11,043 nt of DNA from a virus: UHGV virus genome UHGV-0098765; one strand, written 5' to 3'. The stretch's first letter is position 1. The number at the start of each line of letters is the position of its first letter. The translations under genes were made by a program, and so were the position numbers. The notes under the pieces were generated by a model. The model was not told the origin of the DNA. It did no database searches and worked only from the letters and a program-made list of their open reading frames with translations. Of the stretch, positions 1-10,441 are shown piece by piece.

Positions 1-202
1 CTGAAAAAACTGACGTTCACTGGAGTGGTCGGTTTAGCGTTGCACCAATGCTCGATAGGATGTACCGTTTTTGAAAAACAAGTAGTTATATACTTTGTGG
101 GAGCCTATTGGGAACCCGGCGTTTTCATTTCAAGGTGTAATCCATACGCGGCTTAAGAATGAGATATAATGCGACTTTTAGTGTTCCGCTTGAGAGGCCA
201 TG

Positions 203-736
203 ATGCTTACCCTGGACGAGATAGGTCAATCAGTACGTAACAATATCCAGTTGATTATTGATCATGTCGGCTTACCTCTTGCTGTTGGTCCGCTCAGTGA
301 TGATGATTACAAGATTCTGTGTGGTGGCTATGGTGAGCTTGAATGGGACTATGCGTTAAGTACCTATGGCAACTCCAGAGAAAAGTATGAGTTCTGCATA
401 AAACTTGTTCAGCAAGGTCGGGTTCAGGGAATACCATCAGGAGCAGCAATTTGTGTTTATGGGGTTGAAGAAAACATCTTTCGTATCCATATGATCGAAA
501 GGTTTTCTAGAGAAGATGAATCTCACCCATTGAAAGGGCGCATGGTTTTACTCACTCTTATGAGTGCTTTTATATTTTGTAAAGCTGTTGAATGTAAAGT
601 TGTCCACATTGTAGAGCCAGTACCAGAACTGGTGCAGTATTACGAGTCTTTTGGTTTCCGCATGGAACAGTGCGGTTATGTGATGTCGGCAGTCATTGAT
701 GAGCTGCAGGATATCTTTCTTAAATTTGCTCAGTAG
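203..736 (+). CDS. Putative GNAT-fold N-acetyltransferase-like protein (177 aa; ORF track starts at 200)
   Basis: Intact ORF. GAGAGG at 192-197 sits 5 nt before the second ATG (203), too close to the first (200). Segment HPLKGRMVLLTLMSAFIFCKAVEC...ELVQYYESFGFR resembles GNAT motif A plus the C-terminal Y..GF motif. Possible -10 TATAAT at 165-170. Appears AT-richer than the prophage genes. Confidence 0.5.
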   Translation: MLTLDEIGQSVRNNIQLIIDHVGLPLAVGPLSDDDYKILCGGYGELEWDYALSTYGNSREKYEFCIKLVQQGRVQGIPSGAAICVYGVEENIFRIHMIERFSREDESHPLKGRMVLLTLMSAFIFCKAVECKVVHIVEPVPELVQYYESFGFRMEQCGYVMSAVIDELQDIFLKFAQ

Positions 737-1471: not shown

Positions 1472-2039
1472 TCATAATTCTGTGCTGGTGGCAGGAATTA
1501 ATTTCTGCCAGATAGCGGAAACATATTTTGCCTGATGACGGGCATCAGCTATGGCGTTGTGCCGTTCGCCATCGAAAGGCATGTCCATTTTGGGGTCGAA
1601 TCCGATGGAACGCCCAAGTGTAACGATCGTGCGTACATCGTGGTCATTCCAGTACGCCCACGGGCAGATTTGTCCTGCTCGCTCATAAGCTCCACGTAAA
1701 ATTACGTTGTCGAAGGTGGCTCCGTTACCCCAGACTTTTAAATATTTCGTATTGTCTGCGTGCCGGTAAATGGTTTAGTTCTGAGAGAGCATCGCTGATC
1801 GACAAAGTATCATCAATACAGATTGCAGCTCGCGCTTCAGGGCTTTGTTTCAACCACCACAGGATGGTATCGCCGTCAGGTGTAGCTCCTTGCTTCATAG
1901 CACTGTCTAGGCTGACAACCGCATAGAATTCTTGTCCGATGTCTCCAGTTTCTGGAGTGAAGAACACCGCGCCAATGGAAACGATCGGTGCATCCTTATT
2001 TTTCCCCATCGTCTCAAGGTCGATCATTAAGTTGTTCAT
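1472..2039 (-). pseudogene. DnaQ-like 3'-5' exonuclease, disrupted by a 1-nt frameshift in a homopolymer run
   Basis: N-terminal part (MNNLMIDLETMGK...EIFK) is the track ORF 1725..2093, with start ATG 2037-2039 after AGGAGGTGA. It stops at 1725 right after the run TTTAAAAG (plus 1736-1740). The +1 frame continues VWGNGATFDNVILRGAYERAGQICPWAYWNDHDVRTIVTLGRSIGFDPKMDMPFDGERHNAIADARHQAKYVSAIWQKLIPATSTEL to stop 1472-1474. Removing one A restores a ~188-aa exonuclease. Confidence 0.65.
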
Positions 2040-2557
2040 CACTTCACCTCCTGCGGCGGTTCTGGTAGAGGCATCCAATTGATTACATCGCATTTAGGGA
2101 TGCTGATATCATCACCAAGCCACCCTTGACCTTCAGACCAGCATTGCACGTAATACCCGTATTCTGTGTTCACTACGCACCACTGCGCGTCGTTCGGCAT
2201 TCGATCACTACAGCTTATCCAACTATCCGGAGTTCCCGGATAGTTGCCATTTACATCGAAGTTTGGCTCTGCGTCCTGAACCAGGAGGATGTAACCATTC
2301 TTGGCAGTATCAAGTTCTAACGCCTCGGTGACGGTGCCGAAATAGCGATTACCTAAATCAGCATCACAAGTGCTTACATCAATGGAAACCTCCATGCCTT
2401 CGATTAATTCTGGCAAGTTGTAAGTTTGGCTTACAGGTTCTGCTCCCAGCGATGCCAGTGCAATCCGTGCCAGTTCCATTTGTTCGCCACGGGTAAGCCC
2501 GTTATCAAGCGGATTTTTAATGAATAATTCGATACGTTCTTTGGTAATAGTGGTCAT
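2039..2557 (-). CDS. DUF551 domain-containing prophage protein (172 aa)
   Basis: Intact ORF; AAGGTGA 7 nt upstream of ATG 2557. C-terminal W-rich region (WISCSDRMP...WCVV...CWSEGQGW...VINWMPLPEPP) is typical of DUF551. Stop overlaps the exonuclease start (ATGA). Confidence 0.8.
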   Translation of the reverse strand: MTTITKERIELFIKNPLDNGLTRGEQMELARIALASLGAEPVSQTYNLPELIEGMEVSIDVSTCDADLGNRYFGTVTEALELDTAKNGYILLVQDAEPNFDVNGNYPGTPDSWISCSDRMPNDAQWCVVNTEYGYYVQCWSEGQGWLGDDISIPKCDVINWMPLPEPPQEVK

Positions 2558-2559
2558 AG

Positions 2560-2751
2560 CTATTTCACCTTAATCTCAACATTTCGCAGCTTTAGCTCTA
2601 CTGGCAGGTCTGACTTTCCTGTTAATGCTAATGCGAGATTTTCTGGGGTAATGAGAGCAGTTATTGCTTTCCCCATTGCCAGACGAATAATTATTCGTAT
2701 TTCGCGATCGTCACATGCTCCTGGTCGAACAATTGATATCTGTCCGTTCAT
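2560..2751 (-). CDS. Hypothetical small protein (63 aa, MNGQISIVRPGACDDREIRIII...)
   Basis: Start ATG 2749-2751 lies 1 nt after the stop of the upstream Ea22-like gene, with GGAG upstream. The track ORF 2560..2850 extends further only in overlap with that gene. Stop is 2 nt before the next start. Confidence 0.5.
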   Translation of the reverse strand: MNGQISIVRPGACDDREIRIIIRLAMGKAITALITPENLALALTGKSDLPVELKLRNVEIKVK

Positions 2752-2752
2752 C

Positions 2753-3262
2753 TCACTCTCCTTTGATGCGAATGCCAGCTGCGCTTGCTGATTCTTCATA
2801 TGCGCGTTTAGCAGCGTTAATGATTGCTGCCAGTGGCGTATAGCCGCCATCCATTCGGATTGTGTTGTGGATGCCAGCCATTGTGTTGCGCAATTTTCTG
2901 TGGCTAGCAGACAGTTCTGCTATGCGCTTCTCTGCGGCTTCCATCTCAACGCGCAGCCTTCCTACCGTTAGCGCAATATCCTCGTTCTCCTGGTCACGGC
3001 GTTTGATGTATTGCTGGTTTCTTTCCCGTTCATCCAGCAGCGCCTGCACTACTTCAGGGTTGAAAGCTGCGATATAACGAGCGTTGTTCTCTGCGTTGTT
3101 CTGTCCATCAAAGCCGGTCCATTTGATAACGTCTTCACATCGTTTATCACCAGGTGTATGCACCGCATATGTACCAGTACCAGACGAAATAAATGCGACC
3201 CATTCACCCTGTGTTGCCAGTTGCGCCGCTTTACGCAGTGCCTGATAGTCAATCTTGCTCAC
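2753..3262 (-). CDS. Ead/Ea22-like family protein (169 aa from the GTG start)
   Basis: GTG 3260-3262 is preceded by AAGGAGG with 6-nt spacing and overlaps the stop of the upstream 79-aa ORF (GTGA). N-terminus SKIDYQALRKAAQLATQGEWV plus a central coiled-coil-like region match this family. The track start at 3298 is also GTG and lacks an RBS. Confidence 0.65.
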   Translation of the reverse strand: MSKIDYQALRKAAQLATQGEWVAFISSGTGTYAVHTPGDKRCEDVIKWTGFDGQNNAENNARYIAAFNPEVVQALLDERERNQQYIKRRDQENEDIALTVGRLRVEMEAAEKRIAELSASHRKLRNTMAGIHNTIRMDGGYTPLAAIINAAKRAYEESASAAGIRIKGE

Positions 3263-3498
3263 TGGTTGCCTCCTTTGCGGATCTGCGCTGCGATGCACGA
3301 AAAAAAAGACTCCCGCGTATGACTGTTAAGAGCTGGCGCGAACGCTGCGTTAAGAACGGCAGCATCACAGCCGTCATCGATATAGAGCGCAATTTTTTTC
3401 TCCAGGCGTGCTTTGGCTTCCTGCAACTGCATACCCCGGCACGCACGTGGGATATACTCAGCAATTTGAGCGATAGATTTTTCGTTCTGTTTAAACAT
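3259..3498 (-). CDS. Hypothetical prophage early protein (79 aa)
   Basis: ATG start with GAGGTGA 5 nt upstream; overlaps the stop of the upstream 67-aa ORF by 8 nt (ATGTTTAA), a translationally coupled chain. Confidence 0.55.
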   Translation of the reverse strand: MFKQNEKSIAQIAEYIPRACRGMQLQEAKARLEKKIALYIDDGCDAAVLNAAFAPALNSHTRESFFSCIAAQIRKGGNQ

Positions 3499-3694
3499 GC
3501 TTCACCTCGATCGGCTTGATGGTATCGATCAGCAGTCGGCGGCGAGTATTTTCTGCAAAGTGGCGGCGTCCGGTTTCTTTGTGGTAAAACTCGTTTTTTC
3601 CGACGACCCACATCCGCTTTGTCTGGTGCAGTTTTTTTACCTGCGGACCGTCTCGGGTGATAACAATTCCTGTATGAGTTTTTATCACGCTCAT
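3491..3694 (-). CDS. Hypothetical small basic prophage protein (67 aa)
   Basis: ATG 3692-3694 overlaps the upstream gene stop (ATGA); GGAG 9 nt upstream. Confidence 0.55.
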   Translation of the reverse strand: MSVIKTHTGIVITRDGPQVKKLHQTKRMWVVGKNEFYHKETGRRHFAENTRRRLLIDTIKPIEVKHV

Positions 3695-4053
3695 TTCTTA
3701 TTCTCCGGTGCTTTTGGCATTACTGCCCAGTGAGTGATATTGACGTTTTCAAGGTCCCCGACCTGAAATGTCCACTGCCATTCTCCGTTTTCTTTTTGCC
3801 CCCAGGTGTCCCAGAGGGAACGCCAGCCAATCAGCCAGCCTTCTCCGTTAGCATCAAATAACAGAACACTTTCATTTGCTGGCGGCAGTTCAGCTGACAC
3901 TGGTATTATTTTGTTTTCCAGTGCCGCACATTTAGCTTCAAGCGCGTCGAATTTACGTACCAGGTACTCGGCATTTGTTTCGTTCACTTTCAGATCTCGC
4001 GGTACACATTTTCCGCGAAGAAACCCTTCCATTTCGAAAACATTCATGCGCAT
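3691..4053 (-). CDS. yfdS: DUF551-like prophage protein, YfdS-like (120 aa)
   Basis: C-terminal W-rich motif (GWLIGWRSLWDTWGQ...WQWTF...ITHWAVMPKAPE) is DUF551-like. Length and position after the YfdR-like gene match, from memory, the K-12 CPS-53 gene order yfdP-yfdQ-yfdR-yfdS. Overlaps the upstream gene by 10 nt. Confidence 0.7.
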   Translation of the reverse strand: MRMNVFEMEGFLRGKCVPRDLKVNETNAEYLVRKFDALEAKCAALENKIIPVSAELPPANESVLLFDANGEGWLIGWRSLWDTWGQKENGEWQWTFQVGDLENVNITHWAVMPKAPENKK

Positions 4054-4580
4054 TTGCGTAACTCCGATAACTCGTTAAAACGTTCCATAAACATCCCGTA
4101 GGCATGGCCCGGTGCCAGTGGAATCACGTTGAACATCTCTGTTGCCGGGATGCCTTCCAGTACAGGCCAGAAAGAGCCATCATCAAGCCCGAGATCGCGG
4201 CGTTCGGTTGCCAGCATGATGAGATCGGCATATTTCACAGGTGTGCTCATAACCGGGGGTAACCCGTATTTCTCACGGATTACGGCATCTATTTTTTCTT
4301 CCATCCGTTTATAGTCAGGAAGAAGGCGTTTCAGTGGCGCCGGGATGTCCTGGCAATACGCTTCTGTTGCATCATGCATTAACGCTTCAAAAGAAAATTC
4401 CTGCGGTACCAGCTGGCTGCAAAGCACCGCATGCTGGGCGACACTGTAGAAGTGTGAAAGATGTCCTGCAAAGCGACAGATATTTGAAAGGGAAACCGCG
4501 ATATCGTTAATAACGATGTCATCTTTATTTATCTTGTCATAATAAAAATGCTTCCCAGAAAAAGTTTTAATAAATGACAT
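4044..4580 (-). CDS. yfdR: HD-domain phosphohydrolase, YfdR-like 5'-deoxynucleotidase family (178 aa)
   Basis: H..H and HD signature (HFYSVAQHAV...LMHDATEAYCQDIPAPLK). Start taken at ATG 4580 (MSFIKTF...) with GGAG 6 nt upstream; the track ORF begins 9 codons earlier without an RBS. Confidence 0.8.
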   Translation of the reverse strand: MSFIKTFSGKHFYYDKINKDDIVINDIAVSLSNICRFAGHLSHFYSVAQHAVLCSQLVPQEFSFEALMHDATEAYCQDIPAPLKRLLPDYKRMEEKIDAVIREKYGLPPVMSTPVKYADLIMLATERRDLGLDDGSFWPVLEGIPATEMFNVIPLAPGHAYGMFMERFNELSELRKCA

Positions 4581-4707
4581 TTTGTTCTCCACGTATATGC
4601 GCTGCACCGCGCTGAATTCTGGTAAAAGGAAGCCCTCACCATCCGGTGATTATTGAGTTAATTACGTTTCCATAAATGCCCCCGCAGGGGCATTTGCAGT
4701 AATGAAA

Positions 4708-5532
4708 TCAGGCGGTGAAAGTACCAATAAAGGTTTCTACTTTGCTGTCTTTGAATTTCTCAACAAGCAGATCACGAAATTCGTTAGCCATTTCTTCCTG
4801 CACCGCTTCCAGCTGAATAATGCGCAGAACCAGTACAGGACGATCGCCAGTGATAATGCTGAGGCGTAATTTAAATGGACGTTCTTTCAGACCTTCAAAC
4901 GGAACGCATTTAAATTCAAATGCCACTGGCATAATATCTTTGGTCTTCGCTTCGACAGACTCCATCAGGGAGCGTTTGCCGCTGAAGTCATTATCTTCAA
5001 AATCAGCGGTCTGGTTTGCTTCAATCGTGATTTTACGGACAGCCGCAGCCGCTTTTGTTGCCTGAATAGCGTCACCATTAGCATCAAAGCCCACAAGGTA
5101 GTCGGCCCAGTCTTCAATCCATTCTGCCAGTGACTTCTGGGAGTTACGCTCGCCATTAACAGACAACAGAGCAGAGAACGGTGCTGTCTTTTTCAGTTTG
5201 AGAGTGGCGGTGTTATCTGCGTGACCAGGTTCATCAATAGTACCCAGATTAAGCACACTGACGGCTCGCATATTATCGGCATCGATAAAGCAGCGGGTGC
5301 CTTCATCTGCAAGATCTTTAGAATAACGGGTAAAGTCATCGATGCTGGCAGTGGAAAGCGCACCACGGAAACGGAAGCGATTTAAATTAAATTTTTCCAG
5401 ATCATGAATGCGGAAATTCTCAGGCAATGCCACAGCATCGGCACCAATCTTACTGATAATTTCATTAACACCCTGAGCAGAAATAAGGGCATGGATTTGA
5501 TTAATTGCGGTTGCGTCTAAGTTCTGAGACAT
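4708..5532 (-). CDS. yfdQ: YfdQ-like protein (DUF2303 family, 274 aa)
   Basis: Intact 274-aa ORF with GAGGA RBS. Size, position and general sequence character match my recollection of K-12 CPS-53 YfdQ. Confidence 0.8.
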
Positions 5533-5597
5533 AATAAGTCCTCACTATATAAAAATATTCAGTGATGAGATAAATAATCAGTTTATTAAGAACGATA

Positions 5598-5960
5598 TTA
5601 ACGACCTGCTGCGCGGAGTTTTCCGTCAGGTTCACCGGCAAGAGTCAGTAATTGTCCCTGGTCTTCCTGCAGAATAGTCAGGCGACCACCGCGATTGACA
5701 TACATCAGCGTTTCGGTGGTGTCTTCTTCGGAAATTTTCCCGCGGTTAGTCGGGCGAACATATGAGAGTTTATGTTTGATTTTCACACGGTTCTCATCAA
5801 ATGGTTCGATTTCCAGGTTGAGCGAGACCTTACCTTTGTTTTTCGTGTTCATCGCACCGGAAGCGACTTCACTGAGAACTGCGCCGAGTTTGGTTTCAAA
5901 TACGCCGCCGTCCAGTTCTACGATAAATTCCTGCACGTTGGTACTGCGTTCGCTAGCCAT
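5598..5960 (-). CDS. yfdP: YfdP-like hypothetical prophage protein (120 aa)
   Basis: Start ATG 5960 (MASERSTNVQEF...) with GAGGAGCAG RBS. The track ORF extends to 6191, but that extension (Cys/Arg/Pro-rich, non-protein-like) lies in the structured leader. Confidence 0.7.
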   Translation of the reverse strand: MASERSTNVQEFIVELDGGVFETKLGAVLSEVASGAMNTKNKGKVSLNLEIEPFDENRVKIKHKLSYVRPTNRGKISEEDTTETLMYVNRGGRLTILQEDQGQLLTLAGEPDGKLRAAGR

Positions 5961-6096
5961 TTTGCTGCTCCTCATCATATCGACCCTGCAAGGTCGGTTG
6001 GTTTCTCCACAAAACAGAGAAGAACACCTGCGGTGGCAGCCGCCCGGATGGATTGGGTTATGAGCCCGTCGTCCGGTGATGCTCTTCTCTGTTTTG

Positions 6097-6143
6097 TAAA
6101 AAGAGCGGTACCAGCCGGAAGCAAGTGTACAAACTGGTACCGC
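6097..6143 (-). terminator. Intrinsic terminator inside the PL leader, upstream of the first early-left gene
   Basis: Minus-strand RNA: GCGGUACCAG, 19-nt loop, CUGGUACCGC, then UCUUUUUACAAAAC. 10-bp perfect stem at plus 6105-6114 / 6134-6143. The U-tract region CGCUCUUUUUACAA also resembles boxA (CGCUCUUUA). Confidence 0.5.
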
Positions 6144-6546
6144 CAAAGCAGTGGCTGTTGTGGTGGGGTTGTCACTCAGGCGTATGGTCAACCTGACAAC
6201 CCGGTGTCCTCAACGGGGAAAGAGTAACCCCGCCATACTTACCGCCGCGCCATTTCGCGGATTACCACAACGCTGAGAGCACTTAGCTAGTTACGGCACC
6301 ACACTTTGTCGCTGCTCCATAAATGCCCTCATCGTTGCACCCTGGTCTCTTCCCAGGCGTCAAACCGAATCGCCACGCTGGTTAGACGTCTTATCAGCAT
6401 CCTCATTGACTTGCACATTCCGGCTACCTGGTTTGTTTGCCCGAGCAAGGAGTGGATTGTCCCCTTTAACGTCCCCAGACCGCTAACGACGCATGTGCCA
6501 TACGCCGTGTTACAACCAAATTTTGTTAGGACCTTGTTTGTTTGTC

Positions 6547-6606
6547 TGGAAAGAAAGATAAAATGAAATTGCGTATTGTGCAAGTGTTTTGTTGCGAGTT
6601 ATGCAA
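6547..6606 (-). promoter_or_regulatory. Putative PL early-left promoter with two OL-type operators
   Basis: Minus-strand -35 TTGCAC (plus 6578-6583), 17-bp spacer, -10 TATCTT (plus 6555-6560). Two 15-bp palindromic sites TTGC-N7-GCAA at 6569-6583 and 6592-6606 match the same motif in the OR region (7376-7390). Confidence 0.5.
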
Positions 6607-6616
6607 TAGCGTGAGT

Positions 6617-6640
6617 AATGAAAAGCCACCTTCTGGTGGC
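6617..6640 (-). terminator. Intrinsic terminator downstream of the repressor gene
   Basis: Minus-strand RNA: GCCACC-AGAA-GGUGGC then UUUUCAUUACU, about 23 nt after the cI-like stop codon. Confidence 0.6.
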
Positions 6641-6662
6641 TAATTGATGTTGAGGTAGGGGG

Positions 6663-7355
6663 TTAATTGTGTCGCTTAAGGGTTTGTGACTGACTGATTA
6701 AGACCTTTCCAAAGACCATAAACCGGTGTTCGTTTTCGCTGGTAATTCCCCATTCGCGGTAAATCTGATTATCAGAAATTACCAGCAGTTTATCAGGTAT
6801 CATTTGCAGTCGTTTGACGTAAATTTTATCATCAAAACCAAATACATATATACCATCCCCATCAAACTGATTGATACTGATATCAACGAAGATAAGATCT
6901 CCTGGCTCAATGGTTGGACACATACTGTCCCCACGAACGTTGATAACTTTAATGTGATTTGCTGGTCGTCCACCAAACATCGATACAGCATTATCAGTTC
7001 TGTATTCAATGGCATGAATCACATCAATGACATCACCGCCCTGGATAAGGCCATTTCCCGCACTGGCACTGACATCCAGCATTTCAATACGGAATACATC
7101 CTTCACCTGCGCAACATCCTCACTAATACTGTTTTTACATACAGTATTACTTTTGAGGTCTGAGGTAAAGAGATCAGCAATATCAACACCTAAGCTCCTG
7201 GCAATATTACTCAGGGCTTGTTCAGTGAATTGTTTCTGCTTACCTGTTTCGAGGCGCGAGATATTCGCCGCATCCACTCCTATTGCTTCAGCGAGATCGG
7301 CGATTTTCATGTTCTTCGCCTGGCGAAGTTGTCTGACTCGATTTCCTATGTTCAT
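6663..7355 (-). CDS. CI-like prophage repressor (N-terminal XRE-type HTH, C-terminal S24 LexA-like peptidase domain; 230 aa)
   Basis: HTH region RVRQLRQAKNMKIADLAEAIGVDAANISRLETGK; candidate Ala-Gly cleavage site (SASAGNG); catalytic Ser in GDSMCPTI and Lys in KRL. Divergent from the cro-like gene; apparently leaderless, with -10 TGTAAT 6 nt before the ATG. Confidence 0.9.
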   Translation of the reverse strand: MNIGNRVRQLRQAKNMKIADLAEAIGVDAANISRLETGKQKQFTEQALSNIARSLGVDIADLFTSDLKSNTVCKNSISEDVAQVKDVFRIEMLDVSASAGNGLIQGGDVIDVIHAIEYRTDNAVSMFGGRPANHIKVINVRGDSMCPTIEPGDLIFVDISINQFDGDGIYVFGFDDKIYVKRLQMIPDKLLVISDNQIYREWGITSENEHRFMVFGKVLISQSQTLKRHN

Positions 7356-7452
7356 GCGTTTATTACATTTCTTTATTGCGCGTTAAGCAAATCAACTTGC
7401 GCAAAATATTTGCGTGAAATAATATGCTCATCACGCAATATGTGGAGGTTAT
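7356..7452. promoter_or_regulatory. Divergent PRM/PR promoter and operator (OR) region
   Basis: PR on plus: -35 TTGCGC 7397-7402, 17-bp spacer, -10 TAATAT 7420-7425, GGAGG RBS 7444-7448. PRM on minus: -35 TTGCTT (plus 7385-7390), 17-bp spacer, -10 TGTAAT (plus 7362-7367). Operator-like palindromes: TTGCGCGTTAAGCAA 7376-7390, and inverted repeat TTGCGTGA (7410-7417) / TCACGCAA (7431-7438) flanking the PR -10. Confidence 0.6.
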
Positions 7453-7713: not shown

Positions 7714-8257
7714 GCATCATTGGAAAGTGGAAAAACAACCTGAGTGGTACGTGAAAGCTGTCAGAAAAACTATCGCGGCATTGCCTGGGGGTTACGCTGA
7801 AGCTGCTGACTGGTTGGATGTAACAGAGAACGCTTTATTCAACCGCCTTCGTGCAGATGGCGATCAGATTTTCCCGTTGGGATGGGCAATGGTTTTACAG
7901 CGTGCTGCTGGCAATCACCACATTGCGGATGCTGTCGCACAGTCTGCTGGTGGGGTGTTTGTATCACTTCCTGAAATTGAGGAAGTAGAGAACGCCGATA
8001 TCAACCAGCGCCTGCTGGAGGTCATTGAACAGATCGGCAGTTATTCAAAACAGATTCGTTCAGCAATTGAAGACGGGGTGGTGGAACCACACGAGCAGGC
8101 AGCAATTAACGACGAGCTGTACATGTCAATTTCGAAGCTGCAGGAGCATGCAGCACTGGTCTACAAAATCTTTTGCGCTCCAGAAAAGAGTGACGCCCGC
8201 GAGTGTGCAGCTCCGGGCGCCGTGGCGTTTTGTGTCTGTGGAGAAACTAACGCATGA
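7706..8257 (+). CDS. Putative CII-like phage regulatory protein (183 aa), function hedged
   Basis: GTG start at 7706 with AGGAGG 6 nt upstream, overlapping the cro-like stop by 8 nt. Position immediately after cro. No specific motif verified. Confidence 0.55.
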   Translation: MGKHHWKVEKQPEWYVKAVRKTIAALPGGYAEAADWLDVTENALFNRLRADGDQIFPLGWAMVLQRAAGNHHIADAVAQSAGGVFVSLPEIEEVENADINQRLLEVIEQIGSYSKQIRSAIEDGVVEPHEQAAINDELYMSISKLQEHAALVYKIFCAPEKSDARECAAPGAVAFCVCGETNA

Positions 8258-9405
8258 ACAGTTTAACGGCAAATAACCGTTTGTCGCAACAGCTGGTGGT
8301 CAGCGTGGCTGAACACCTGTTGTTACGGCATGAATGCAGATTACCAAATCACCTGGCTGTAAGTAACCACAGAGAACTTTACCTGACTGTGGGGGGCGAG
8401 TTGTGCAGGAACTTAACCGCTGGTTTCGTGACGGAAGAGGGCTTTATGTCCATGTTATTCGTTGGGAGCCAGAAACACAGCGCGTTATCTATCTTCGCAA
8501 AGACTACCCGCATGAGTGCTTTAGTCCTTTGTGGAAATTCAGGCGTGATTTTGTTGAGTGTGAAGGACCACCAACACATTGATTCTGCCATTCCGGGACG
8601 TTACACTATTCAGGCACCTTATAAAACGGGTGCCGGGCGTGGAAACCCGGAATTCACCAAAGCGCACAACCGCGCTCTTGCGGTTTTTTTGTGTCATGAG
8701 CAGCATTACGCCCAAATTATGGTGGGGCGTGCAGGGCCAACTTCGGTTGGGCCGGGTTCTTTGGTGACCGGTATTTCCACCCCTGTACGTCTCACCACCA
8801 ATAAGGTCGTGGAAAGCCTTGGTGGTGAGTTATTAAAAATCACCAAAGAGGCTGCCATCATGGCTACGATCCCAACCCTCACTCAACCTGAAATTGCCAT
8901 CGTTGATGGTCAGGCTGTTACTTCATCCCTGGCTGTTGCCAACTTCTTCTCCAAACGTCATGACGATGTACTGAAAAAGATCCGCACGCTTGAATGCTCA
9001 GCATCATTCACTGCCCGCAATTTTTCGGTGAGTGATTACACTGATTGCACAGGTCGCAAACTTCCTTGCTACCAAATCACACGCGACGGTTTTGCGTTTC
9101 TTGCTATGGGTTTCACGGGTAAACGTGCTGCCCAGTTCAAAGAGGCATATATCAATGCCTTTAACCAGATGGAGAAACAGCTTTCAAAGCCCTATGTACC
9201 GAGCGACGTTGCACATAACGCCAGCGTTCTCTGTTCCTACATTTCATCAATTCATCAGGTCTGGCTGCAGCAGCTTTATCCTATGTTGGCAAAAGCCGAA
9301 TCTCCGCTGGCTGTTAGCTTATATGACTATATTAATGATGCTTCGGCGCTGGCCTGCCTCATAAATTTGTCGCTGAACCCTTCAGAGGTAAGGGGGCGCA
9401 AATGA
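8254..9405 (+). CDS. Rha-family phage regulatory protein (Rha domain in the C-terminal half); alternative start at ATG 8840 gives a 188-aa canonical Rha protein
   Basis: ATG 8254 overlaps the CII-like stop (ATGA) with a GGAGAAA RBS, and the frame stays open for 383 codons. The recognisable Rha domain (VDGQAVTSSLAVANFFSKRHDDVLKKIR...YQITRDGFAFLAMGFTGKRAAQFKEAYINAFNQMEKQL) begins only after ATG 8840, which has its own AAAGAGG RBS. A terminator-like hairpin with a T7 run (8648-8670) lies inside the N-terminal part. Confidence 0.45.
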   Translation: MNSLTANNRLSQQLVVSVAEHLLLRHECRLPNHLAVSNHRELYLTVGGELCRNLTAGFVTEEGFMSMLFVGSQKHSALSIFAKTTRMSALVLCGNSGVILLSVKDHQHIDSAIPGRYTIQAPYKTGAGRGNPEFTKAHNRALAVFLCHEQHYAQIMVGRAGPTSVGPGSLVTGISTPVRLTTNKVVESLGGELLKITKEAAIMATIPTLTQPEIAIVDGQAVTSSLAVANFFSKRHDDVLKKIRTLECSASFTARNFSVSDYTDCTGRKLPCYQITRDGFAFLAMGFTGKRAAQFKEAYINAFNQMEKQLSKPYVPSDVAHNASVLCSYISSIHQVWLQQLYPMLAKAESPLAVSLYDYINDASALACLINLSLNPSEVRGRK

Positions 9406-9626
9406 TCCGGAATATTTTCAAACGGTTTACCAATCAGACCTTCCGTTGTCCTCGTCCGGGTCAGTGGTACACCACGCCTGCAGGGCATGTTCTACGTGTT
9501 AGCCTGGTTGACCGTGAATGTCAGAAAGTGATTTGTGAACCGCTGGGCCGTAATTACCGCGTCAGTATGCCGCTTATAGCATTTCGCTCTGGAAAAAACA
9601 TGAAGCATCTCGGAGGTGCAGCATGA
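9402..9626 (+). CDS. Hypothetical small Cys-containing protein (74 aa)
   Basis: ATGA overlaps at both ends (9402-9405 and 9623-9626), consistent with translational coupling inside the replication operon. Confidence 0.5.
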   Translation: MIRNIFKRFTNQTFRCPRPGQWYTTPAGHVLRVSLVDRECQKVICEPLGRNYRVSMPLIAFRSGKNMKHLGGAA

Positions 9627-10441
9627 GTATGGAGCTGATGGTTAAAGCGATGAAAATTCGAGTGGGTAATCCATTGCGAAAACTGGTTCTGATCAAGCTG
9701 GCTGATAATGCCAGCGATCAGGGTGAGTGCTGGCCCAGCTACCAGCATATTGCTGACCAGTGCGAGATTAGCAAACGTTCTGTGATGAATCATATTGCGG
9801 CCCTTTGTGATTCCGGGCTGGTAAAAAAAGTCACCCGGAAAGGTGAAAAAGGTAACTCAAGTAATATCTATCTCCTTCATCTTGATGGTGCAGGAGATTC
9901 ACTAGGGGGTAGTGCAAATGATTCACTATCTGGTGCAGCAAATTCACCAGGTAGTGCAGGAGTTGCACCAGGGGGTGGTGCAGGAGATTCACCCAGAACC
10001 AGTCACTCTTTTGAACCAGTCAATGAACCAGTCAATGAACCAATAGCTGTTGGTGCATCTGCTGATGAGTCTGTGCGAGTTCGTTCAAACCGACCGGAAT
10101 ACTCTCCGGAGTTTGAGCAGGCATGGCTGGCATATCCCAAACGTGCTGGTGGCAATTCAAAATCAGCGGCCTTCAAAGCCTGGAAAGCCCGTTTGAACGA
10201 GGGGGTAAACCCCGAAACCATGCTGGAAGGTGTGAAACGCTACGCGGGCTGGGTATCTGCGATGGGCAATAGCGGCACACAATTTGTGAAACAGGCTGTC
10301 ACGTTCTTTGGTCCGGATCGTCATTTCGAAGAATCCTGGGAAGTTCCTGCGGTATCTGCAGCTAGACGTGAGGACCCGTACTTCAAAGCCAGTTACGACA
10401 ACGTGGACTACAGCCAGATCCCGGCAGGATTCAGGGGGTGA
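9623..10441 (+). CDS. Replication initiator, lambda O-like organisation (N-terminal winged-helix DNA-binding domain, internal iterons, C-terminal domain; 272 aa)
   Basis: GGAGG RBS 6 nt upstream. N-terminus (LRKLVLIKLADNASDQGECWPSYQHIADQCEISKRSVMNHIAALCDSGLV) is replication-protein HTH-like. A low-complexity linker (GAGDSLGGSANDSLSGAANSPGSAGVAPGGGAGDSP) is encoded by a direct-repeat array. Confidence 0.75.
   Translation: MSMELMVKAMKIRVGNPLRKLVLIKLADNASDQGECWPSYQHIADQCEISKRSVMNHIAALCDSGLVKKVTRKGEKGNSSNIYLLHLDGAGDSLGGSANDSLSGAANSPGSAGVAPGGGAGDSPRTSHSFEPVNEPVNEPIAVGASADESVRVRSNRPEYSPEFEQAWLAYPKRAGGNSKSAAFKAWKARLNEGVNPETMLEGVKRYAGWVSAMGNSGTQFVKQAVTFFGPDRHFEESWEVPAVSAARREDPYFKASYDNVDYSQIPAGFRG
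9887..10036. repeat. Iteron array (putative prophage replication origin) inside the O-like gene
   Basis: Five direct repeats of a 16-bp unit RGTGCA-N6-TKCAC at 9887, 9911, 9932, 9953 and 9977 (spacing 21-24 bp), each with inverted GTG/CAC ends. Followed by tandem 12-bp GAACCAGTCAAT x2.6 at 10013-10044. Confidence 0.7.

Follow-up and report, generated by a model that had tools for sequence, protein, structure and literature searches.

The viral genome UHGV-0098765 was analyzed as a single stretch of 11,043 nucleotides (nt), hereafter the window, in which a chain of co-oriented genes occupies the minus strand between positions 2039 and 5960. This block is almost certainly the early operon that is transcribed leftward in a lambdoid prophage of Escherichia coli, of the type of mEp460, SfV and ST64B. 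Judging from sequence orthology, it is also nearly certain that the operon is composed of yfdP, yfdQ, yfdR and yfdS, the orthologs of the CPS-53 genes of E. coli K-12, followed by a mosaic tail. The tail comprises two small open reading frames (ORFs), E and F, the Ead/Ea22-like gene G, the small ORF H and gene I, which encodes a DUF551 protein. Beyond it lie a decayed gene for a DnaQ-like exonuclease and then the gene for a PrtN-type excisionase (Xis, 1154-1462). As a whole, the block is a very common module that has been described and named before. An earlier note on this DNA had placed ten genes in the interval; nine are inside it, and the tenth would be the exonuclease gene (1472-2039), which falls outside.

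A single collinear blastn match of 2,277 base pairs (bp), from 3703 to 5979, links the window with 97% identity to yfdP-yfdQ-yfdR-yfdS of K-12 CPS-53. At the protein level, BLASTP against K-12 returned identities of 92.5% for YfdP, 99.3% for YfdQ, 98.9% for YfdR and 98.3% over 117 amino acids for YfdS, and the four orthologs lie in the same order on one strand. The likeness to the yfdP-yfdQ-yfdR-yfdS(-yfdT) locus of CPS-53 (also KplE1) extends to the spacing of the genes and to a hairpin between yfdQ and yfdR. The two loci differ on both sides of the block. CPS-53 has neither a repressor, nor the leftward promoter PL, nor any of the leader that precedes yfdP in the window, and the identity begins 19 nt upstream of yfdP. 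After yfdS, CPS-53 continues with yfdT, ypdJ and torI, whereas the window has E, F, the Ead/Ea22 gene, H, the DUF551 gene, the broken exonuclease gene and the PrtN-type Xis gene.

The gene yfdR (4044-4580; this and all other genes of the block are on the minus strand) encodes a 178-amino-acid homolog of HD-domain 5'-deoxynucleotidases, which differs from K-12 YfdR at 2 of 178 residues. It matches phrog_318 (E = 2e-109), named deoxyribonucleoside 5' monophosphate phosphatase in PHROG, as well as the HD protein of PDB entry 2gz4 (E = 8e-14), and its RefSeq name is 5'-deoxynucleotidase. When we looked for the metal-binding motif H...HD...D, the strings QH and MHD were visible in the sequence. Its Pfam scores are below threshold (22.5 bits for YfbR-like, with a cut-off of 25.9, and 16.9 bits for HD_3, with a cut-off of 22.5), but the identity to K-12 YfdR fits the earlier description of an HD 5'-deoxynucleotidase-like enzyme. 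The label of a nucleotide-metabolism operon holds only in part, as it relies on this single HD protein, and YfdR is reported to bind nucleotides with far weaker affinities than YfbR does (PMC4776307).

The gene yfdQ (4708-5532) encodes a protein of 274 amino acids that belongs to DUF2303, as noted before (Pfam, E = 2e-92, 310 bits). The first gene of the operon, yfdP (5598-5960), encodes 120 amino acids that match phrog_204, and its homologs carry a precomputed match to Pfam PF27127. The structure prediction that the earlier note had proposed for each ORF was done for YfdP and YfdQ, the two largest proteins without a role, and assigned no function. The AlphaFold2 model of YfdP (predicted local distance difference test, pLDDT, of 79) consists of one long helix over a curved sheet and had no significant match in PDB. 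A resemblance of YfdP to NTF2-like or CaMKII-hub-like proteins was only weak (E at least 4e-3, TM score around 0.3), and we rejected it as evidence. The YfdQ model (pLDDT 75.6) returned no significant match, and thus none among the solved structures of annealases and other proteins of DNA repair. By sequence, a solved homolog is PDB entry 9o7m, titled 'YfdQ Protein', which holds 36 chains in one entry (E = 1e-44). This entry was not among the Foldseek PDB matches of the YfdQ model, and our literature search returned no publication on it. The structure may show in which oligomeric state DUF2303 occurs and what its function is.

Downstream of yfdR, yfdS (3691-4053, 120 amino acids) and gene I (2039-2557, 172 amino acids, phrog_60) both end in a DUF551 domain, with scores of 24.0 and 42.9 bits against a Pfam cut-off of 22 bits. 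The two had been described as DUF551 paralogs: the domain is indeed present in both, but their paralogy is invisible to BLAST (23% identity, E around 3-5). They share only the domain, which is described as portable and present also on some Ea22 variants (PMC10834534). The small proteins E (3491-3694, 67 amino acids, phrog_1226), F (3259-3498, 79 amino acids, phrog_1344) and H (2560-2751, 63 amino acids, phrog_1222) are real: they match PHROG families with E-values between 1e-40 and 1e-53 and are therefore conserved genes. Gene G (2753-3262, 169 amino acids) has a GTG start with AGGAGG 8 nt upstream, and belongs to the Ead/Ea22 family (Pfam Ead_Ea22, PF13935, E = 7e-35, 121 bits over residues 2-120). 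The exonuclease gene (1472-2039) is frameshifted. The 104-amino-acid N-terminal part matches the Rv2179c-like family of DnaQ-like 3'-5' exonucleases (Pfam, E = 7e-36), and the alignment with the intact 190-amino-acid gene of mEp460 and of strain Br_178_kylling places a 5-bp deletion near 1767/1768. The gene is either a pseudogene or the product of a sequencing error. Every member of the chain falls in a PHROG phage family with E ≤ 1e-40, and only the families of yfdR and of the exonuclease carry a known function. Most members still have no assigned role, in agreement with the earlier note.

The genes had also been described as joined throughout by overlapping stop and start codons. From yfdR onward this is the case, and seven of the nine junctions range from -10 to +2 nt. 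The yfdP/yfdQ and yfdQ/yfdR junctions are instead uncoupled, with stop-to-start distances of +65 and +127 nt, so that a translationally coupled operon in the sense of coupling at every junction is not what we observed. The remaining spacings are -10 nt for yfdR/yfdS (or an ATGA overlap at 4047-4044 if the second Met is the start), -4 nt for yfdS/E (ATGA, 3694-3691, where the start of E overlaps the yfdS stop), -8 nt for E/F (ATGTTTAA, 3498-3491), -4 nt for F/G (GTGA, 3262-3259), +1 nt for G/H, +2 nt for H/I and -1 nt for I/exonuclease. Junctions this tight are normal in phage operons and are unremarkable. Each of yfdP, yfdQ and yfdR has its own Shine-Dalgarno sequence. The yfdQ-yfdR gap contains on the minus strand a GC-rich 9-bp hairpin (4670-4699, -16.5 kcal/mol), which is not a canonical terminator, because no U-run follows it.

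To describe how widespread the block is, we searched complete E. coli genomes with a 5-kb query. Some part of it is present in 5,013 out of 5,426 genomes, while at least 80% of it is found in 41. Of the phages, mEp460, 1720a-02 and a number of Stx-converting phages match best, and homologs of parts of the block occur in SfV and ST64B. The same gene order is found in mEp460, ST64B and around 30 IMG/VR prophages, and a 98.8%-identical prophage in strain Br_178_kylling carries the RefSeq names yfdP, yfdQ and yfdR. With the early-left regions of mEp460, SfV, ST64B and LLS, the window shares the repressor, a long unannotated leader, yfdP, yfdQ, yfdR, DUF551 and Ea22-type genes, the exonuclease and Xis, as well as the lack of N and of Red/Erf/Gam genes and the presence of oriented Chi sites. 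The content downstream of yfdS is mosaic among these relatives: the Ea22-like protein of mEp460, for example, is only 36% identical to that of the window. The exonuclease gene is frameshifted in the window, unlike in its close relatives.

A survey published in 2025 found the yfd cluster to be common in lambdoid early-left operons lacking a recombination module (PMC12315714). The same survey describes an LLS-type class with no Rec module, no N and many oriented Chi sites, which may use RNA-mediated ('put-like') antitermination. The window fits this class, since no recombinase or anti-RecBCD family was matched and Chi sites (GCTGGTGG) are distributed five to none by strand over the 11 kb: those on the plus strand lie at 1484, 7946, 8292, 10145 and 10955. 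In particular, none of the ten proteins had a Pfam or PHROG match to a recombination module (exo/bet/gam, erf/abc or recET; Red/Erf/RecT/Gam-type or anti-RecBCD), and the only nuclease among them is the frameshifted DnaQ-like 3'-5' exonuclease. The analogy with the typical early-left content of lambdoid phages, on which the earlier note had drawn, is thus a poor fit for recombination. It finds no backing for anti-defense either: no member matched a defense or anti-defense family in PADLOC or NCBIfam, libraries that cover anti-defense proteins poorly.

On the other side of yfdP, the gene for a CI-type prophage repressor (6663-7355, minus strand) was identified by its Peptidase_S24 domain (Pfam, E = 5.9e-19) and helix-turn-helix (HTH) families, and is followed by an intrinsic terminator hairpin (6624-6641, minus strand, from the terminator scan; -12.3 kcal/mol). 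Divergent from the repressor, the plus strand carries genes for Cro-type HTH, CII(CP76)-type, Rha-family, replication and PerC-like proteins, and the phage replication module spans 9623-10441. This arrangement, an S24/HTH repressor from which the genes cro, CII(CP76)-type and Rha diverge, supports the earlier identification of the operon as an early-left one in a lambdoid prophage. The palindrome TTGC-N7-GCAA has four exact sites in the window, compared to 0.40 expected. Two of them lie 23 bp apart to the left of the cI terminator (6569-6583 and 6592-6606) and one in the gap between cI and cro (7376-7390); the operon stands next to a CI-type repressor and has operators in common with the PR side. 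This shared motif supports a putative OL/PL at around 6555-6606 (minus strand), with TTGCAC (6583-6578) as candidate -35 and TATCTT (6560-6555) as candidate -10 elements that would be used for leftward transcription. The operon had been placed under PL. The operator motif does occur in both regions where it is expected, but the operator-like sites lie about 600 nt upstream of yfdP and a structured leader is interposed between the two.

This leader, around 590 nt between PL and the start of yfdP, has no RefSeq annotation. We found no conserved ORF in 5961-6662, nor the N gene and nutL that follow PL directly in lambda; also for the related phage LLS, no N homolog is reported (PMC12315714). The lambda early-left region resembles that of the window in the divergent CI/Cro immunity region, the leftward transcription toward xis and int and the presence of an Ea22-family gene. 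The window differs from it in having no N protein, recognizable nut site, exo, bet, gam or kil, and a 590-nt structured leader with a terminator replaces N. Comparison with phage records showed the leader to be put together, as a mosaic, from non-coding modules that are conserved, and the fold of 5955-6300 is much better than that of shuffled sequence (z = -4.9). Rfam returned no match in 5961-6662 at E ≤ 1, and the scan for tRNA genes found none in the window. Two plus-strand ORFs annotated over the leader in mEp460, gp36 and gp37, we consider spurious: RefSeq omits them, the insertions and deletions that distinguish homologs of the first module (M1, described below) do not come in multiples of three, and the covariation of M1 is that of an RNA.

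Close to the 5' end of the PL transcript lies M1 (6333-6508, minus strand), an RNA of conserved structure, around 175 nt long in the window and ranging from around 155 to 183 nt. A search with its invariant 19-mer GGTAGCCGGAATGTGCAAG brought up more than 120 viral contigs, from which 30 representatives with at most 93% mutual identity formed the set for the analysis of covariation. We specified five helices, one of which is a possible pseudoknot. In the helices, 96.5% of the cells are paired, and 11 pairs show compensatory changes in 67 cells. None of 500 shuffles matched the observed pairing, the number of compensated pairs or the covariation score, and register-shifted controls were all far lower. 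The many G-U pairs fix the RNA on the PL-sense strand. The resulting covariance model scores 137.6 bits in the window and finds exactly one copy per phage, with none in HK022, in ST64B or on the PR side. M1 has no match in Rfam (E ≤ 1), we found no description of it in the literature, and it is unannotated in all 12 of the records listed.

Outside the window, M1 is present in 1,832 of the 5,426 E. coli genomes, and 551 of the places where it occurs are on plasmids (P1-type prophages). In 45 of 127 loci it stands beside a co-oriented tRNA gene. In Uetakeviruses (epsilon15-like), a gene for tRNA-Arg follows 165 nt downstream of the M1 motif, while in P1/P7-like elements a tRNA-Ile(CAU) gene is located immediately upstream of M1, inside the ban operon. 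Many other M1 loci are 1.2-2.3 kb away from a divergent gene of the CII/YmfL type; these are PL leaders of lambdoid prophages with varied repressors and varied downstream genes. In some immunity types, M1 starts about 10 nt after a TATCTT -10-like hexamer.

Among known systems, M1 resembles putL of HK022: both are structured RNAs that come early in the PL transcript of a lambdoid phage without N, and both precede a terminator. The differences between the two are substantial. The putL RNA is around 70 nt long with two stems, compared to around 175 nt and at least five helices for M1; HK022 put has copies at both PL and PR, whereas M1 occurs once per phage with no partner on the PR side; and M1, unlike put, is also found in the middle of an operon in P1/P7 and beside tRNA-Arg in Uetakeviruses. 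We rejected homology of the leader to HK022 put, because beyond a 9-mer there is no similarity to the PL/put/immunity region of HK022, and the covariance model finds no copy there. It is possible, although short of likely, that M1 is a new phage regulatory RNA, which could function as a put-like cis element for read-through into yfdP or as a stable RNA, processed in the manner of a tRNA, that acts on a conserved host target.

Downstream of M1, the leader contains the cloverleaf-shaped RNA M2 (6154-6273, minus strand), which folds into an 8-bp closing stem and three arms. Its variable arm covaries across around 60 distinct copies. M2 is followed by an intrinsic terminator upstream of yfdP (6097-6144, minus strand), with a 13-bp stem (-21.2 kcal/mol) and then UCUUUUU. 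Among homologs the terminator stems differ through compensatory changes that maintain pairing, with a T-run after them. A scan with the M2 core retrieved 105 viral contigs, and M1 was upstream in only 7 of 103 copies; M1 and M2 are therefore independent modules. The window form of M2 is 86% identical to a copy in the leader between repressor and kil of Actinobacillus phage pPE4 (2501-2616).

M2 with its terminator occupies the slot of sRNA-17, a 193-nt small RNA that was mapped by rapid amplification of cDNA ends (RACE) and northern blot in E. coli K1 RS218, where it belongs to a prophage of the mEp460 type (Sun et al. 2020, PMC7719688). The 5' end CGTTGTGG is at 6272 and the terminator GGCGGTACCAG...CTGGTACCGC at 6097-6144, and the RACE and full-length primers (PMC7719688, Table S2) match the closing stem of M2 and the terminator flanks. 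Both RNAs occupy the leader slot between M1 and yfdP and have the closing stem GTTGTGG...CCACAAC and the terminator in common, while the internal sequence and arms differ. M2 corresponds to the variant called 'degenerative sRNA-17', and the window form appears among the alignment rows of that paper (PMC7719688). The same paper regards the M1 DNA as the ArcA-regulated promoter of sRNA-17; the covariation shows instead that M1 itself folds as an RNA, on the strand of sRNA-17. Moreover, the quantitative PCR amplicon used there begins where M1 starts and reaches to the end of sRNA-17 (PMC7719688), and therefore co-transcription of M1 is indicated in RS218. When the body of sRNA-17 was replaced in RS218, yfdP rose from 0.5 to 47 reads (2^6.6) and yfdR from 0 to 8.5 (2^4.1) (PMC7719688). 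This rise is consistent with a gating of the operon by the leader.

The last module of the leader, M3, is a 25-bp imperfect hairpin located just upstream of the yfdP ribosome-binding site (6006-6100, minus strand; inverted repeat 6009-6033/6073-6097). It is common to ST64B and LLS-type phages, and 85% identical to the sequence just upstream of sb37 in ST64B. ST64B and LLS have neither M1 nor M2, but do have M3 in common with the leader of the window. In the same region, the sequence UGUGGAGAAAC(C/U)AAC occurs in both early transcripts, at 5997-6011 (minus strand) just upstream of the yfdP ribosome-binding site and at 8237-8251 (plus strand), where the CII-type gene ends. Another, weaker match between the left and right transcripts pairs 6006-6033 with 8508-8535. 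The shared UGUGGAGAAAC(C/U)AAC sites could be due to chance or represent a shared RNA target site.

For what the operon does, the one activity with experimental evidence is that of the K-12 proteins. Noguchi and Katayama recovered yfdQ-yfdR-yfdS-yfdT in multicopy as a suppressor of hda-185, a mutant that over-initiates, and showed that raised copies of yfdQRS or yfdQRT inhibit initiation at oriC in several genetic backgrounds, with yfdQ needed together with yfdR for the multicopy inhibition of replication (PMC4776307). Purified YfdR binds domain I of DnaA, with Phe46 as an important residue, and competes with DiaA and DnaB, while extracts containing YfdQRST inhibit oriC replication in vitro (PMC4776307). 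These authors suggested that the Yfd proteins once served the growth of an ancestral phage, in analogy with lambda P (PMC4776307). DnaA binding and oriC inhibition are thus activities of the K-12 proteins, which orthology would carry over to the window. Taken whole, the best explanation of the locus is in our opinion that of an early-left operon of the yfdPQRS type serving the takeover of host replication, to which we assign a probability of about 0.6.

Such a takeover would start with the loss of the CI-type repressor, which, to judge from the common operator motif, would allow transcription from PL just left of the cI terminator. RNA polymerase would transcribe at first the non-coding leader of around 590 nt, with M1, M2, the intrinsic terminator and the long hairpin, and only transcripts that read through the terminator would reach yfdP. 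With no N-like protein, this read-through would have to be partial or mediated by RNA. As read from the sequence, yfdP, yfdQ and yfdR would then be translated from their own ribosome-binding sites, and the genes from yfdR to the exonuclease in a coupled manner. YfdR, aided by YfdQ and YfdS, would occupy DnaA domain I and keep oriC from initiating further rounds, while the phage replicates from an origin of its own. The natural role would be an early shutdown of host chromosome initiation at induction or infection, which would free DnaB and other resources for the module at 9623-10441. The weak deoxynucleoside monophosphate (dNMP) phosphatase activity of YfdR would be accessory, and so would the DUF551 proteins and the Ea22-like protein, which in lambda and Stx phages is pro-lysogenic. 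The parts of this scheme that we infer are that the inhibition takes place during induction with the genes expressed at natural levels, where exactly the promoter lies, and that read-through is required.

Several observations weigh against this explanation. The effect on DnaA was seen only upon overexpression, no replication phenotype resulted from deleting yfdQRST, and the authors admit the possibility of an artifact (PMC4776307). In addition, yfdP was outside the suppressor fragment (PMC4776307), and all this evidence comes from K-12 proteins, outside a live phage of the mEp460 type. The consensus promoter scan did not report PL, and both PL and the start of transcription are placed by the operator motif only. 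As for the leader, the RS218 deletion, according to our reading of the primers, keeps the terminator hairpin within the homology arm and has the cassette facing yfdP. Read-through from the cassette may therefore explain the rise of yfdP and yfdR equally well, and we downgraded the experiment as a proof of terminator gating. Finally, given the broken exonuclease gene, this prophage may be in decay and may have no further use for the operon.

A different possibility is that the yfd genes are a cargo for the benefit of the lysogen, and that their low-level expression improves the tolerance of the host to oxidative, acid and DNA-damage stress rather than contributing to lytic growth. Deletion of CPS-53, or of yfdQ or yfdS alone, increases sensitivity to H2O2 (Wang et al. 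2010, as cited in PMC4776307), and the yfdQ deletion is sensitive to methyl methanesulfonate (Rooney et al. 2009, as cited in PMC4776307), although the stress phenotypes reported are weak. A cargo would also account for the persistence of the block in CPS-53, which is heavily decayed and has lost its immunity region, and for the presence of parts of it in 5,013 of the 5,426 genomes. In intact prophages, however, the genes sit behind a repressor-controlled promoter and an intrinsic terminator, and in wild-type RS218 lysogens yfdP and yfdR have around 0 reads and are essentially silent (PMC7719688), which makes this possibility unlikely. We also see little chance that YfdR acts as a dNMP phosphatase that, with its partners, reshapes nucleotide pools or counters nucleotide-based defenses, while the small proteins inhibit defenses. 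The HD-phosphohydrolase fold, the match to phrog_318 and the RefSeq name of YfdR all fit such a role, and an early-operon position with small accessory ORFs in a mosaic region is generally typical of anti-defense loci. The low nucleotide affinities of YfdR speak against it, no experiment ties any member to a defense system, and the negative outcome of the PADLOC and NCBIfam searches adds only weak evidence, given their poor coverage of anti-defense proteins.

Least credible is in our opinion a cryptic module for recombination or replication restart, in which YfdQ, possibly with YfdP, would replace Red/Erf-type functions, for example as a DNA-binding protein forming rings or filaments. The phage class has no recognizable Rec module (PMC12315714), the cluster occupies the position where this module is usually found, and the 36 YfdQ chains of PDB 9o7m suggest a large homo-oligomer. 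The authors of the survey consider this role unlikely, however, because the cluster occurs also in phages with a complete Rec module and is not universal in those without it (PMC12315714). The predicted fold of YfdQ has no significant similarity to solved annealases or DNA-repair proteins, and the strongly oriented Chi sites point to reliance on host RecBCD. Takeover of host replication thus remains the explanation that we prefer for the operon.

Two further loci of the window lie away from the operon. Between 8601 and 8860 on the plus strand, Rfam matches identify IsrK (8614-8690, 67.9 bits) and the C4 antisense RNA (8715-8802, 83.6 bits), just upstream of the Rha-family gene (ATG at 8860). 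The ribosome-binding site of Rha (around 8840-8851) is overlapped by UCACCAAAGA, to which the C4 loop UCUUUGGUGA is complementary. By these sequence features, 8601-8860 is an antirepressor control module of the P1 immI/Gifsy-1 IsrK type, and the 383-amino-acid ORF at 8254-9405 is therefore mostly non-coding at its 5' end. Beyond the Xis gene, a 178-amino-acid ORF (200-736, plus strand) has no match in Pfam, PADLOC or NCBIfam. An ORF of similar size occupies this slot in mEp460, while the closest E. coli relative has a pair of Panacea-domain genes there. The slot at 200-736 may be a moron or cargo slot.

As a discovery, the operon itself is minor, since it is among the commonest prophage blocks of E. 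coli, already named in RefSeq, genetically dissected once (PMC4776307) and surveyed in 2025 (PMC12315714). The leader has broader implications, because the N-less lambdoid class has no known mechanism of early antitermination, and a 'put-like' RNA has so far been only a guess (PMC12315714). A strongly covarying RNA between PL and the terminator makes this question directly testable. If our reading of M1 is true, the published 'ArcA-regulated promoter of sRNA-17' would be the M1 RNA, and we suggest that the promoter region of this virulence-associated small RNA be reread as RNA.

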